From: a virus
Lineage: Duplodnaviria > Heunggongvirae > Uroviricota > Caudoviricetes
Reading direction: 5' to 3' (one strand)
Length of the DNA stretch: 7,478 nucleotides
Virus record (IMG/VR): IMGVR_UViG_2548876938_000002
Span: 1-7,478 of that record
Position numbers and translations under genes: made by a program. Every line of letters begins with the position of its first letter. Positions within the stretch are counted from its first letter, which is position 1. Shown here one piece after another: positions 1 to 7,177 of the stretch. Below the pieces are notes generated by a model. That model searched no databases and was not told the DNA's origin. It was given only the letters and a program-made list of their open reading frames with translations.

Positions 1-720
1 ATAAACGAGCTGGTGATGTCGGTGGCGCTGACGTCATATTCCAGACAGCCACGGCGAATAACGTCTTTTGCCTTGAGCACCATTGCGGTTTTCATTTCCG
101 GCGTGTAGCGGATATCGCGCGCGGCGGGATAGAACGAGCGCACGAGCTGGAACACGCCGACACCGAGGCCGGTGGCATCAATACCGATGTATTCGACGTT
201 GTATTTTTCGGTGAGTTTGCGGATGGATTCCGCCTGGGTGGCAAAGTCCATGCCTTTCCACTGATGGCGCTCAAGTATTCTGAATTTGCCACCGGCCACC
301 ACCGGCGGTGCCAGCACCACGCATCCGGCGCTGTCGCCACGGTGTGACGGGTCGTAACCAATCCATACCGGGCGGGAGCCGAACGGATTGGTGGCAAACG
401 GCGCGTAGTCTTCCCATTCTTCCAGCGTGTCGACCATGCAGCGTTGCAGCTCCTCGAACGGGAACACTGACGCCTTGTCGTCAACAAATTCACACATGAA
501 CAGGTTTTTAAAATCGTCGGCGCTGTTTTCGCGTTTGAGCTGCTCAATGTCGAACAGCGTGCAGCCGCCTTTCAGCGCGTCCTCAATGGTGACAATCTGC
601 CGCCACTGGCCGTCCGCACAGAGAAGACCTCCGGCAAGTGCGTTATGACTGACGTCGATTTCCACGCGTTCAGCGGCGCTGGCGCGTCCCCGGTTAAACA
701 GTTCACCGGACCAGAACGGG
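1..720 (-). pseudogene. Phage terminase large subunit, C-terminal (nuclease-domain) fragment; 5'-truncated, 3' end runs off the window start
   Basis: Hand translation of the minus strand (codons aligned to plus positions 3-5, 6-8 ...) gives an open frame from 821 down to position 1 with no stop. It reads ...WIGYDPSHRGDSAGCVVLAPP...KFRILERHQWKGMDFATQAESIRKLTEKYNVEYIGIDATGLGVGVFQLVRSFYPAARDIRYTPEMKTAMVLKAKDVIRRGCLEYDVS..., which resembles terminase large-subunit nuclease-domain motifs. No ATPase (Walker) region lies upstream; the first ATG is at 779 and the residues before ~720 are antisense to the gpI fragment. The ORF track omitted it because no stop lies in the window. Confidence 0.55.
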
Positions 721-732
721 TATCTGATTGAG

Positions 733-1047
733 GTGAGGGAGTGGTGGCAACTCAATGAGGAGCCGGGGACGTTCCGCATCGTTGTTGGCGTGCTTGAGCA
801 GGGTATTACCGAGGAAATGTATCAGGAGCTGGAGCGCCTCGTTGCTGATGCAAAACCGGCGAGCCGCCATCTGACGGGACTGGCTATCAGTTTAAGTACA
901 ACCGGCAACATTTTTGCCGGTGCGGGATGCTATCACGGTGACGCCCTGACGGTTTATCCCTACACCCCGGAGGCCATTATTGTCGGAGGGGATTATTTCC
1001 CGGCCTCGGCCATTCATTTAATTGATAACCTGAGAGTAAACGCATGA
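733..1047 (+). pseudogene. I: Baseplate assembly protein gpI-like, C-terminal fragment (N-terminally truncated)
   Basis: The 104-aa ORF (VREWWQLNEEPGTFRIVVGVLEQGITEEMYQELERLVADAKPASRHLTGL...) matches my memory of the C-terminal half of P2 gpI. It starts at GTG with no ATG; its frame opens only at 649 and the in-frame residues before ~718 look unrelated. Its stop overlaps the tail-fibre start (ATGA at 1044..1047), as at the I-H junction of P2-like phages. Confidence 0.5.
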
Positions 1048-3249: not shown

Positions 3250-3705
3250 TATTTAGCCCTCACCAGAAAGTTAAATGCAATGTTACGTGGTCTGACGGCA
3301 ATAAAATTAACACCATCTCCTACTGAGTTACTGGTGTACTGAAATCGAGAGAAACCTGGTTGGTGTGCTGATATTCCATCGTAATCAGCAATCGCATGGC
3401 CGGACCCTTCTGGATAATTACCGCCAAATTGCGATAAAGCTGTTGCTGCCTGCCAGCTTAATAATGCTCGCCCACTGTCCGCCCCTCGCCCATCATCCCA
3501 GATACGAATGAAATCACCGCGGGCTTCAGGTAATACCAGCGAAGGAAACACTTTTGCCAGCACAGGGTAATCAGAGGCAGAAAATTTCGCCCCGTTGAAC
3601 TTCAAAAACACCATACTGGACCAGCTATCGATTACAGTATTTGGCATTGCAGCGGACGGCCAGAAGAACGGAACGCCAATAGCTGGAGCACCTTCTCCCA
3701 AACCA
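3249..3705 (-). CDS. Alternative (currently silent) tail fibre C-terminal tip, promoterless and startless, expressed only after inversion as a fusion to the constant part of the fibre gene
   Basis: The minus-strand frame reads ...IFINVGLGEGAPAIGVPFFWPS...FNGAKFSASDYPVLAKVFPSLVLPEARGDFIRIWDDGRGADSGRALLSWQAATALSQFGG...GSGHA...FNFLVRAK. The GLGE codons lie in the crossover site in the same phase as in the plus-strand fibre gene. The C-terminal part resembles the phage tail-collar fibre domain. The ORF-track Met at 3746 lies outside the invertible segment and is probably artefactual. Confidence 0.75.
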
Positions 3706-3718
3706 ACGTTTATGAAAA
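3693..3718. other. Right crossover site of the invertible segment: TTCTCCCAAACC-AA-CGTTTATGAAAA (inverted relative to the left site)
   Basis: Read directly. It is 26 bp with a central AA at 3705..3706 (TT on the other strand), and its half-site TTCTCCCAAACC is the exact reverse complement of GGTTTGGGAGAA in the left site. It lies ~55 bp upstream of the invertase start. Confidence 0.8.
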
Positions 3719-3773
3719 TGCAGAGATAACGGGCAACTGGCATCATCTCCGGTTTTTATTCAGGGGGATGCTC

Positions 3774-4367
3774 ATGCTTATTGGCTATGTACGCGTGTCA
3801 ACAAATGACCAGAACACGGAATTGCAGCGTAACGCGCTGGAGTGCGCAGGATGCGAGCGGATTTTTGAGGATAAAATCAGCGGCACGAAGTCCGACCGAC
3901 CGGGACTGAAAAAACTGCTCAGAACATTATCAGCATGTGACACTCTGGTAGTCTGGAAGCTGGACAGGCTGGGGCGTAGTATGCGGCATCTGGTCATTCT
4001 GGTTGAGGAACTGCGCGAACGCGGCGTTAATTTTCGCAGTCTGACGGATGCTATTGATACCAGCACGCCGATGGGGCGTTTTTTCTTTCATGTGATGGGG
4101 GCCCTGGCTGAAATGGAGCGAGAACTCATTGTCGAGCGGACTCGGGCCGGGCTGGAAGCGGCCAGAGCCAAAGGTCGTATTGGTGGCAGACGTCCTAAAC
4201 TCTCCACGAGTGAGTGGGAGCAGGCCGGGCGTTTGCTGGCTGCAGGGGAGTCACGTCAACGCGTGGCACTGATTTTTGATATTGGTCTGTCCACGCTCTA
4301 TAAAAAATTTCCCTCATCAGCGACAAAGAATAAATTGTGTCATCCCTTAGCCAACCGGGACAAATAG
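3774..4367 (+). CDS. Site-specific DNA invertase, serine recombinase of the Gin/Cin/Pin/Hin family
   Basis: The product MLIGYVRVSTNDQNTELQRNAL...DTLVVWKLDRLGRSMRHLV...RSLTDAIDTSTPMGRFFFHVMGALAEMERELIVERTRAGLEAARAKGRIGGRRPKL...GLSTLYKKF has the catalytic-serine motif (YVRVS), the resolvase/invertase catalytic domain and a C-terminal helix-turn-helix. It is close to the Pin/Gin sequences as I recall them. I prefer the ATG at 3774 (AGGGGGA at 3762..3768, 5-nt spacer) to the ORF-track start at 3768. Confidence 0.9.
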   Translation: MLIGYVRVSTNDQNTELQRNALECAGCERIFEDKISGTKSDRPGLKKLLRTLSACDTLVVWKLDRLGRSMRHLVILVEELRERGVNFRSLTDAIDTSTPMGRFFFHVMGALAEMERELIVERTRAGLEAARAKGRIGGRRPKLSTSEWEQAGRLLAAGESRQRVALIFDIGLSTLYKKFPSSATKNKLCHPLANRDK

Positions 4368-4426
4368 CCTGACATCTCCGGCACAACTGAAAATATCACT
4401 CACCCATTAACCACGGAGTTAAACGG

Positions 4427-5298
4427 ATGAGTGACTATCATCACGGCGTGCAGGTGCTGGAGATTAACGACGGCACCCGCGTCATTTCCACCGTATCCAC
4501 TGCCATTGTCGGCATGGTCTGCACGGCCAGCGATGCGGATGCGGAAACCTTCCCCCTCAATAAACCGGTGCTGATTACCAATGTGCAGAGCGCAATTGCA
4601 AAGGCCGGTAAAAAAGGCACGCTGGCGGCATCGTTGCAGGCCATCGCCGACCAGTCAAAACCGGTCACCGTTGTTGTGCGTGTGGAAGACGGCACCGGCG
4701 ACGACGAGGAAACGAAACTTGCGCAGACCGTTTCCAATATCATCGGCACCACCGACGAAAACGGTCAGTACACCGGACTGAAAGCCCTGCTGGCGGCAGA
4801 GTCGGTACCGGCATCAGCGCCTCTGTATTCTGGGATTTGCAGGAGTCCGGCACCGATGCTGACCTGCTTAACGAGTCAGGCGTCACTACGCTGATTCGCC
4901 GCGACGGTTTCCGCTTCTGGGGTAACCGTACCTGCTCCGATGACCCGCTGTTCCTCTTTGAAAACTACACCCGCACCGCGCAGGTGCTGGCCGACACGAT
5001 GGCTGAGGCGCACATGTGGGCAGTGGACAAGCCCATCACCGCAACGCTGATTCGCGACATCGTTGACGGCATTAATGCCAAATTCCGTGAGCTGAAAACA
5101 AACGGCTATATCGTGGATGCGACCTGCTGGTTCAGCGAAGAATCCAACGATGCGGAAACCCTCAAGGCCGGAAAACTGTATATCGACTACGACTATACAC
5201 CGGTGACCGAGCAGGAAGTCGCCGCGCTGGAACTGCCTGACCTTGTGGCGCTGGCCGGTAAGGTGGTCGGTTTTTTGTCGCCGAACTCGGTGCAGTGA
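4427..5298 (+). pseudogene. FI: Tail sheath gene (P2 FI-like) remnant: frame change near 4808 and 3' end fused near 5206 to the C-terminal codons of a tail-chaperone (gpE-like) frame
   Basis: Two overlapping ORFs in different frames (4427..4894 frame 2; 4837..5298 frame 1) both read as sheath protein ([54 protein letters not shown]... and ...[40 protein letters not shown]...[11 protein letters not shown]). Together they span ~290 codons, whereas P2-type sheaths are ~390 aa. GGAG at 4415..4418 precedes the ATG. The last ~30 codons ([30 protein letters not shown]) match my memory of the gpE C-terminus and contain the slippery heptamer. Confidence 0.65.
5271..5277 (+). promoter_or_regulatory. 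Programmed -1 frameshift slippery heptamer T_TTT_TTG of the tail-chaperone E/E' module (relic)
   Basis: TTTTTTG sits in X_XXY_YYZ phase relative to the frame ending at 5298 (codons ttt ttg = F L), about 7 codons before that stop. The -1 frame is open from 5241 to 5573 and reads [29 protein letters not shown]... This is the classic position for the tail assembly chaperone frameshift (lambda G/GT, P2 E/E+E'). Confidence 0.5.
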
Positions 5299-5326
5299 CG
5301 TTTCCGAAAAATCTCTCGGTCGATGA

Positions 5327-7177
5327 CCTGATGGCGGATGTGGCAGTGATATTTCACTGCCCGGTTATGAGTTTGCGCAGAAAAACTCAGAATTGCAGGC
5401 TGTGCTCGGTGTGGCAAAAGACTCCGCCGAAATGGCTGCACTACGCAAGCAGGCGCGCCAGCTCGGCGACAATACCGCCGCCTCGGCAGATGATGCAGCC
5501 GGTGCGCAGATTATTATTGCGAAAGCCGGTGGGGATGTTGATGCCATTCAGGCGGCAACGCCGGTCACGCTGAATATGGCGCTGGCGAACCGCCGCACGA
5601 TGGAAGAAAACGCCGCCCTGCTGATGGGGATGAAATCCGCCTTTCAGCTTTCAAACGATAAGGTCGCTCATATCGGGGATGTTCTCTCCATGACGATGAA
5701 CAAAACCGCCGCCGATTTTGACGGCATGAGCGATGCGCTGACCTATGCCGCACCTGTGGCAAAAAATGCCGGTGTCAGCATTGAAGAAACTGCCGCAATG
5801 GTCGGGGTACTGCATGATGCAAAAATTACCGGTTCAATGGCGGGGACGGGAAGCCGTGCCGTGTTAAGCCGCCTGCAGGCACCGACGGGAAAAGCATGGG
5901 ATGCACTCAAAGAGCTTGGTGTGAAAACCTCAGACAGTAAGGGAAACACCCGACCAGTATTTACCATTCTGAAAGAAATGCAGGCCAGTTTTGAGAAAAA
6001 CCGGCTCGGTACTGCCCAGCAGGCTGAATACATGAAAACCATTTTCGGGGAGGAGGCCAGTTCAGCCGCCGCCGTGCTGATGACTGCCGCCTCAACCGGA
6101 AAGCTGGACAAACTGACCGCTGCGTTTAAAGCCTCAGACGGAAAGACCGCAGAGCTGGTAAATATCATGCAGGACAACCTCGGCGGTGACTTTAAGGAGT
6201 TTCAGTCCGCTTATGAGGCGGTGGGGACTGACCTGTTTGACCAGCAGGAAGGCGCACTGCGTAAGCTCACGCAGACGGCCACAAAGTATGTGTTAAAACT
6301 CGACGGCTGGATCCAGAAAAACAAATCACTGGCGTCAACCATCGGCATCATTGCCGGTGGCGCACTGGCGCTTACTGGCATCATCGGTGCCATTGGTCTT
6401 GTAGCCTGGCCGGTTATCACCGGCATCAATGCCATCATCGCGGCAGCAGGCGCAATGGGGGCAATCTTCACGACGGTTGGCAGTGCTGTTATGACCGCCA
6501 TCGGGGCGATTAGCTGGCCGGTTGTGGCTGTGGTGGCCGCCATTGTCGCCGGGGTGTTGCTTATCCGTAAATACTGGGAGCCTGTCAGCGCATTCTTTAG
6601 CGGTGTGGTTGAAGGGCTGAAAACGGCATTTGCGCCGGTGGGAGAACTGTTCACGCCACTGAAACCGGTGTTCGACTGGCTGGGTGAAAAGTTACAGGCC
6701 GCGTGGCAGTGGTTTAAAAACCTGATTGCCCCGGTCAAAGCCACCCAGGACACCCTGAACCGTTGCCGTGACACGGGCGTCATTTTCGGGCAGGCACTGG
6801 CTGACGCGCTGATGTTGCCGCTTAATGCGTTCAACAAACTGCGCAGCGGCATTGACTGGGTACTGGAAAAGCTCGGGGTCATCAACAAAGAGTCAGACAC
6901 ACTTGACCAGACCGCCGCCAGAACTCATGCCGCCACGTATGGCACCGGTGGTTATATTCCGGCGACCAGCTCTTATGCAGGCTATCAGGCTTATCAGCCG
7001 GTCACGGCACCGGCTGGCCGCTCTTATGTGGACCAGAGTAAAAACGAATATCACATCAGTCTGACGGGCGGTACTGCACCGGGGACTCAGCTCGACCGCC
7101 AGTTACAGGATGCGCTCGAAAAATACGAGCGGGATAAACGTGCGCGCGCCCGTGCCAGCATGATGCATGACGGTTAA
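5327..7177 (+). pseudogene. T: Tail tape-measure protein (gpT-like), missing its start and N-terminal region
   Basis: The frame is open from 5327 to the TAA at 7175..7177. The product has tape-measure features: the core motif region ...DALTYAAPVAKNAGVSIEETAAMVGVLHDAKITGSMAGTGSRAVLSRL..., a long Gly/Ala/Ile-rich hydrophobic segment (IGIIAGGALALTGIIGAIGLVAWPVITG...) and a C-terminal domain. No ATG with a ribosome-binding site exists: the ORF track started at TTG 5393 and the first in-frame ATG at 5432 has no Shine-Dalgarno. The upstream E-prime frame is a different frame. Confidence 0.65.

Follow-up and report, generated by a model that had tools for sequence, protein, structure and literature searches.

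At positions 5190-5300 of the DNA analyzed here (the window, i.e. the whole stretch of 7,478 bp, which is the entire draft contig AIAO01000156.1 of assembly GCA_000446325.2), the reading frame of a phage tail sheath gene runs on into the end of a tail assembly chaperone gene, in which a slippery heptamer is still in phase. The question raised by this locus is whether it represents a new fused gene with programmed frameshifting, or what was left behind when part of a tail operon was lost. Judging from alignments and homology searches, we consider it very probable that the segment is a deletion scar, with 854 bp lost, in a defective E. coli P2-like (Peduovirus) prophage. Apart from a breakpoint in gene E that recurs in other remnants, the FI-E junction is ordinary decay of a prophage. 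Defective P2-like prophage remnants are a well-known kind of object and the finding is therefore already known, the recurrent E breakpoint being the only part of the analysis with wider value.

Identity and gene map of the element

By nucleotide comparison, the window was found to be 96-99% identical to P2 and to approximately 1,700 E. coli prophages, always in the form of several collinear pieces. Against P2 and the related prophages L002, L003 and L011, this collinear, high-identity homology is interrupted by internal deletions of essential genes (Table 1). The contig starts within gene P and finishes within gene U, with no host flank on it; the prophages of the relatives adjoin fieF, pflB or yegQ. 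All 722 nt of the P fragment are 100% identical to genes annotated as 'terminase ATPase subunit' in E. coli P2-like prophages, with a fully open frame, and the fragment of gene I is collinear with L002, L003 and L011. Positions 4300-4430, surrounding the late promoter, are identical base for base to the intact relative L002. The gene E fragment shows zero differences to either L002 or L011, and the T fragment has no internal stops and no native start. Scanning the window with Rfam yielded zero RNA family matches.

Between I and FI, an intact tail-fibre gene, two tail-fibre assembly genes and an inverted alternative fibre end were found, together with an inverted pair of crossover sites and a serine invertase, a layout which is the same in intact relatives. 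The crossover sites are 26 bp long (TTCTCGCATACC TT GGTTTGGGAGAA and its partner), located at 1858-1883 and 3693-3718 (within 1858-1889 and 3687-3718), and border a 1.8-kb invertible tail-fibre segment with the alternative fibre ends and assembly genes. The adjoining invertase (3768-4367) is of the Hin/Gin/Cin/Pin type. All ORFs of the invertible segment and the invertase are intact despite the decay in the rest of the window.

Table 1. Retained features of the window, its four deletion junctions (J0-J3), and junctions at the same site of gene E in other prophage remnants.
Feature	Position	Strand	Deleted	Overlap	Evidence and remarks
Terminase ATPase gene P, fragment, ~codons 293-532	1..722	-			cut by contig end and J0
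Baseplate gene I, C-terminal fragment, codons ~96-203	723..1047	+			tblastn with P2 gpI residues 95-175
Late promoter (pF) and leader, 5' of sheath gene	4330..4426	+			matches the annotated Ogr-activated pF region of P2
Sheath gene FI, codons 1-127	4427..4808	+			tblastn FI 1-137, frame 2; Pfam Gp18_domIII_N
Sheath gene FI, codons 238-369	4810..5205	+			tblastn FI 225-373, frame 1; Pfam Phage_sheath_1C, 1e-19
Gene E, codons 62-91 and stop (tail assembly chaperone C-terminus)	5206..5298	+			30/30 identical to P2 gpE
Slippery heptamer T_TTT_TTG	5271..5277	+			homologue of the P2 E/E+E' -1 frameshift site
E', first ~27 codons, -1 frame	5277..5359	+			tblastn E+E' 84-114
Tape-measure gene T, codons 211-815 and stop	5360..7177	+			tblastn T 204-815, 97% identity; Pfam PhageMin_Tail
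Gene U, first 95 codons	7192..7478	+			cut by contig end; PF06995; compared with L002
J0	721/722		9,489 bp	TA	P codons 1-292 through I codons 1-95 lost
J1	4807/4808		328 bp	TA	FI codons 128-237 lost; frameshifting (gapped alignment to P2 and L002)
J2	5204/5205		854 bp	TG	FI codons 370-396, all of FII and E codons 1-61 lost; in frame
J3	5358/5359		713 bp	TG	3' part of E' and T codons 1-210 lost; out of frame
B::E (replication protein B)	L015:10116-10118				385-kb E. coli contig; E part starts at T62
gpS::E	L016:1025-1027				read-archive assembly; E part starts at T62
Portal gene Q-E	L025:3816-3817 = NC_009801.1 about 1010094				finished E. coli E24377A genome

Four collinear deletions

Alignment to P2 and to intact relatives identified four collinear deletions in the window (J0-J3, Table 1). 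At J0, as aligned to L003 and L011, the C-terminal part of the minus-strand P gene is joined to codon 96 of gene I, and head, lysis and most baseplate genes are taken out. The J2 deletion, which created the fusion, is bounded by FI codon V369 and E codon T62, and removed 84 nt from the 3' end of FI, a 12-nt spacer, the 519 nt of FII, a 56-nt spacer and 183 nt of E, i.e. two thirds of the last gene. J3 follows 81 nt beyond the heptamer. An earlier interpretation of this DNA, made by eye from the letters and their ORFs (the sequence-only reading), held that one deletion had taken the 3' end of the sheath gene, the whole tube gene and most of E while sparing the recoding signal, and the alignment bears this out. 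It overlooked J0, J1 and J3, on account of which the J2 fusion is without functional significance.

Random deletions show an overlap of at least 2 nt in 16% of cases only, and the presence of such overlaps at four out of four junctions therefore has p ~7e-4. The deletions probably arose by illegitimate (microhomology-associated) recombination, and not by homologous or site-specific recombination. An exact Chi site was not found near any junction. Octamers with at most one mismatch to Chi (GCTGGTGG) numbered 17 in the whole window vs 7.2 expected, a count reached in 0 of 200 shuffles, and one of them (GCTGGCGG, 4789-4796) is situated 11 nt upstream of J1; the enrichment leaves the breakpoints unexplained.

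The fusion frame and the slippery heptamer

The ORF at 4837..5298 (frame 1) follows FI through V369 and then continues, in frame, with codons 62-91 of E. In the sequence-only reading its end had been taken for the C-terminus of P2 gpE, and this holds: the last 30 residues are 30/30 identical to gpE 62-91 and therefore derive from gpE and not from the sheath. P2 gpFI continues with PPLENLTL at that point, whereas in P2 gpE the 30 residues are preceded by APML, and no match of the 30 residues to the sheath C-terminus was found. In tblastn searches, P2 E 61-91 matched window positions 5203-5295 (E 6e-17), and P2 E+E' 84-114 matched 5271-5363 in the -1 frame. The proposed check for the tube gene, i.e. 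tblastn with P2 FII against the window, gave a best match of 16 aa (E 9.8), in agreement with the claimed absence of this gene.

In P2, a -1 shift at TTTTTTG gives rise to E (91 aa) and E+E' (142 aa) from a single start, and the frameshift requires no downstream structure (PMC3091744). The heptamer of the window maps onto what is labelled 'site of -1 translational frameshift' in the P2 record. Read in the ORF frame it is GG[T TTT TTG], and the -1 frame is open from 5277 to a stop at 5571-5573 (98 codons). The site, the phase and the open -1 frame, all three of which had been put forward as evidence of a chaperone origin, are thereby upheld; the heptamer sequence taken by itself is not such evidence, with TTTTTTG found twice in the window vs 1.75 times expected. 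Because this count is no more than chance, the identity of the heptamer rests on homology together with position.

Of what constitutes an E/E+E' pair, the window retains gpE homology for the C-terminal third (a fragment too short for Pfam, which gave no match to the E tail) and an in-phase T_TTT_TTG at the homologous position. A complete 91-codon E with its own ATG and an N-terminus shared by both products is missing, as codons 1-61 fall in the J2 deletion. Likewise, of a -1 extension (E', ~57 codons) ending at the start of T, ~27 codons are kept, and instead of a tube gene upstream and a complete T downstream, FII is absent and T is short of 210 codons. On the evidence of this gene content, the heptamer is a passive relic and not a working recoding signal, and it is still there only by virtue of falling within the 156 bp left between the deletions on either side. 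A ribosome slipping at the heptamer would add ~27 E' residues, followed by ~70 out-of-frame T residues.

Translation and expression of the remnant

Translation from the FI ATG (4427) leaves the sheath frame after codon 127 at J1, continues for 28 out-of-frame codons and stops at 4892-4894. This frameshift, lying upstream of the fusion ORF, cuts it off from the FI start; the first possible start of the ORF is the TTG at 4837, by eye without usable Shine-Dalgarno spacing. As there is no start before this TTG and no usable ribosome-binding site, we infer that the fusion ORF is a mechanical ORF, i.e. a pseudogene fragment, and not a gene. The domain content shows the same fragmentation: the three domains of a single continuous sheath ORF (PF22671, PF04984 and PF17482) are spread over two fragments in different frames, with PF22671 in the first and PF17482 (profile positions 1-95 of 104) in the second, and PF04984 reaching 19.9 bits vs a cut-off of 31.4. 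Annotation should consequently be treated with caution here, as the 153-aa 'sheath C-terminal' and 588-aa 'tape measure' proteins of gene callers are neither of them real genes.

From the identity to the intact relative, transcription from the pF region would appear plausible if an Ogr-type activator were supplied. Weak internal initiation (e.g. at ATG 4999) and some frameshifting at the heptamer are possible, and would count against the pseudogene reading.

Intact relatives and the age of the deletions

Via an exact match to the H protein we reached L011 (GCA_036294505.1, contig JAVGNM010000008.1), an intact P2-like E. coli prophage with full-length FI (396 aa), FII (172 aa), E (91 aa) and T (815 aa). 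Its H protein is identical to that of the window, and outside the junctions the two share 99.95% identity, with four SNPs over ~6.9 kb; the difference is that L011 has E' and all head, lysis and baseplate genes from P to I. On these alignments, L011 is effectively the undeleted form of the element in the window. The four SNPs are found at window positions 4914, 4938, 5022 and 7187, the first three of which belong to the 399-nt piece of the sheath gene bounded by J1 and J2. The window alleles at 4938 and 5022 are absent in 13 out of 13 relatives examined, and in the FI frame both are third codon positions, consistent with the count of zero non-synonymous differences between this fragment and L002. 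Altogether, the retained fragments show 86 synonymous and 16 non-synonymous codon differences to L002, and the retained gene fragments contain no internal stops and no frameshifts.

Since L011 differs at four positions only and the retained fragments are free of stops and frameshifts, the deletions are probably recent relative to the point divergence. Four deletions at near-zero point divergence would amount to unusually fast decay, and they could instead be one complex event.

The intact relatives also carry variable cargo between genes S and V. In some, this is a protein of 508 aa whose Pfam matches are weak (AAA) or faint (TIR-like) (L010:5899-7425 and L012:5899-7425), and an alternative is an unannotated 261-aa protein on the opposite strand (L005/L006:6639-7424). 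The S-V interval may be a cargo hotspot of P2-like prophages.

Recurrent breakpoints in gene E and elsewhere

The junction peptide and the 30-residue E tail were used as queries against protein collections, and DNA was scanned for copies of the E site in which the base in front is not the native one. At the nucleotide level, three other independent remnants (Table 1) turned out to break exactly where the window does, at E codon 61/62 (…GATGC^TGACCGAG, window 5204-5206). All four events have an overlap of TG or TGA; on the left, each ends in a different gene, at distances between 0.85 and ~25 kb. Control scans at three other positions in E returned SNP variants only and zero junctions, and a 16-nt scan for events in which the E site would form the left-hand end returned random matches only.

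A second common endpoint is E codon 8 (L017:870-872, L018, L019 and L020:474-475; corresponding to L011:15181-15184). Its partner is FII in one multi-deletion remnant recovered from three metagenome assemblies; a fourth contig has the holin gene instead. Upstream of lysA, two finished genomes (L022:3001-3009 and L024:3001-3010) have a third endpoint in common. Over the 15 mapped junctions, i.e. the four of the window and 11 at related loci, overlaps range from 0 to 4 nt and the retained right side starts with TA or TG in 11. Several left flanks end in CGG(G)T(R) and several right flanks read (R)ACC, giving GGT(N)ACC-like junctions, from which two hold-outs deviate. A T-purine rule for the junction overlaps was tried and rejected; because two hold-out junctions fail it (11/15 fit), the pattern is a tendency only.

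Some apparent fusion proteins with an E tail were discarded, as they were IS21-family insertions or contig-end fragments and not deletions. The IS21-family insertions in E are situated at ~codon 37 (L147:173-2560) and ~codon 43 (L146:1-32). In addition, a metagenome contig (L152:1-1007) contains an inverted junction inside E, near L011:15294-15300, with minus-strand FII/E placed head-to-head with plus-strand E/T. It reflects a snap-back rearrangement or else an artefact of assembly.

Alternative explanations

The scar could be denied in two ways, i.e. by regarding the junctions as unreal or by regarding the fusion as a gene. In the former case, the junctions would be draft assembly or sequencing artefacts, arising from a chimeric contig or from gaps that were collapsed or stripped, and the real F operon would be intact. 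The contig is indeed a singleton of an old short-read draft, both of its ends fall within phage genes, and the exact junctions occur in no other assembly: the arrangement was found in none of 5,426 complete E. coli genomes, zero matches were obtained with the junction words of J2 (genome, viral and metagenome collections), J0 (genome collection) and J3 (metagenome collection), and the proteins spanning J1 and J2 are found on this contig only, among ~15 billion proteins. The near-isogenic intact L011 moreover means that no independent point decay backs the age of the deletions. However, De Bruijn and overlap assemblers mis-join on long shared words, and only 2 nt are common to the two sides of each junction; with stripped gaps the overlaps would be random, which the p value above argues against. 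Finished genomes hold similar multi-deletion P2 remnants, and the E breakpoint recurs both in a finished genome (E24377A) and in other remnants, on k127/k141 metagenome contigs. Because the overlaps are short and non-random, and finished genomes contain both such remnants and this very breakpoint, we regard an artefact as very unlikely. The idea that the sheath-C::E fusion is a functional new gene, with programmed -1 frameshifting and two products, is harder still to believe and borders on the implausible. It draws on the in-frame junction, the phased heptamer identical to that of P2, where no downstream structure is needed (PMC3091744), the 98 open codons of the -1 frame and the intact pF promoter region. 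Against this, J1 cuts off the FI start and leaves the poorly spaced TTG as the first start, the -1 product would consist of ~27 E' residues and then out-of-frame T without a Pfam family match, the E/E' partners, FII and 210 codons of T are lost, and the protein is confined to one contig among ~15 billion proteins.

The third alternative concerns the origin of the scar and is compatible with it, namely that a site-directed process acted at E codon 61/62, joining it to variable upstream sites. The codon might be a place where a topoisomerase (gyrase) cleaves strongly, or one targeted by a nuclease. That four independent remnants end at one nucleotide of E, with FI, B, S and portal gene Q as left partners and TG/TGA overlaps, speaks for such a process, as do the junction-free control positions in E, the further common endpoints at E codon 8 and upstream of lysA, and the TA/TG starts of 11 out of 15 right sides. 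Furthermore, the E site reads T^GACC, and quinolone-stabilised gyrase cuts before G (PMC6379681), so that a topoisomerase origin may fit the T^G cut preference of the quinolone-trapped enzyme. The numbers are small, however, and come in part from searches centred on E, and two hold-out junctions have no T-purine start. A hairpin or cruciform at the recurrent breakpoint was considered and rejected, as structure there did not exceed shuffled controls (z -0.71). The same applies to the serine invertase of the prophage itself acting at quasi-crossover sites in the manner of Cin/Pin: a 2-nt core is shared, and the half-sites match at 5-9 out of 24 positions vs a background mean of 7.5. This origin was rejected because the breakpoints do not resemble crossover sites. 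Taken together, we hold a site-directed process to be a tentative possibility, somewhat short of an even chance.

The common endpoints suggest breakpoint hotspots for illegitimate recombination, a lead and not a result, since the sample is small and was partly ascertained through E. More specifically, E codon 61/62 might be a genuine hotspot, from which deletions extend 0.85 to ~25 kb leftward to T-purine microhomologies, with a strong gyrase or nuclease site as a possible cause, although we consider this rather unlikely. If true, the decay of a widespread P2-like prophage family would be partly channelled by sequence and not random, and the four deletions of the window might represent a single burst of breakage and end joining. 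Should the hotspot hold in a systematic survey, it would offer a concrete, testable site for how illegitimate recombination dismantles prophages.

Comparison with known systems

A close known counterpart of the scar is the P2 F operon, encoding the FI sheath, the FII tube, the E and E+E' chaperones and the T tape measure (AF063097 / NC_001895). Gene order and orientation in the window match those of P2, and gpE residues 62-91 and TTTTTTG are identical, whereas FI 128-237 and 370-396, FII, E 1-61, the distal half of E' and T 1-210 are gone. A further difference is located upstream, where the window has the invertible tail-fibre segment and serine invertase in the place of Z/fun in P2.

Remnants in finished genomes (E24377A NC_009801.1, SRY157, 1344_LBHALD, LR-28 and PEC301) likewise have truncated sheath, tube, E or T genes and collinear internal deletions with 0-4 nt overlaps. 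Their left partners and deletion sizes differ, and none of them has the FI::E junction.

Lastly, the chaperone frameshifting of lambda G/GT (Xu, Hendrix and Duda 2004; Christie et al. 2002, cited in PMC3091744) belongs to the same signal class, with a slippery heptamer near the end of a chaperone gene, upstream of the tape-measure gene. In contrast to this arrangement, the window retains the signal and 30 upstream codons only, the N-terminus, the -1 extension and the neighboring partners having been deleted.
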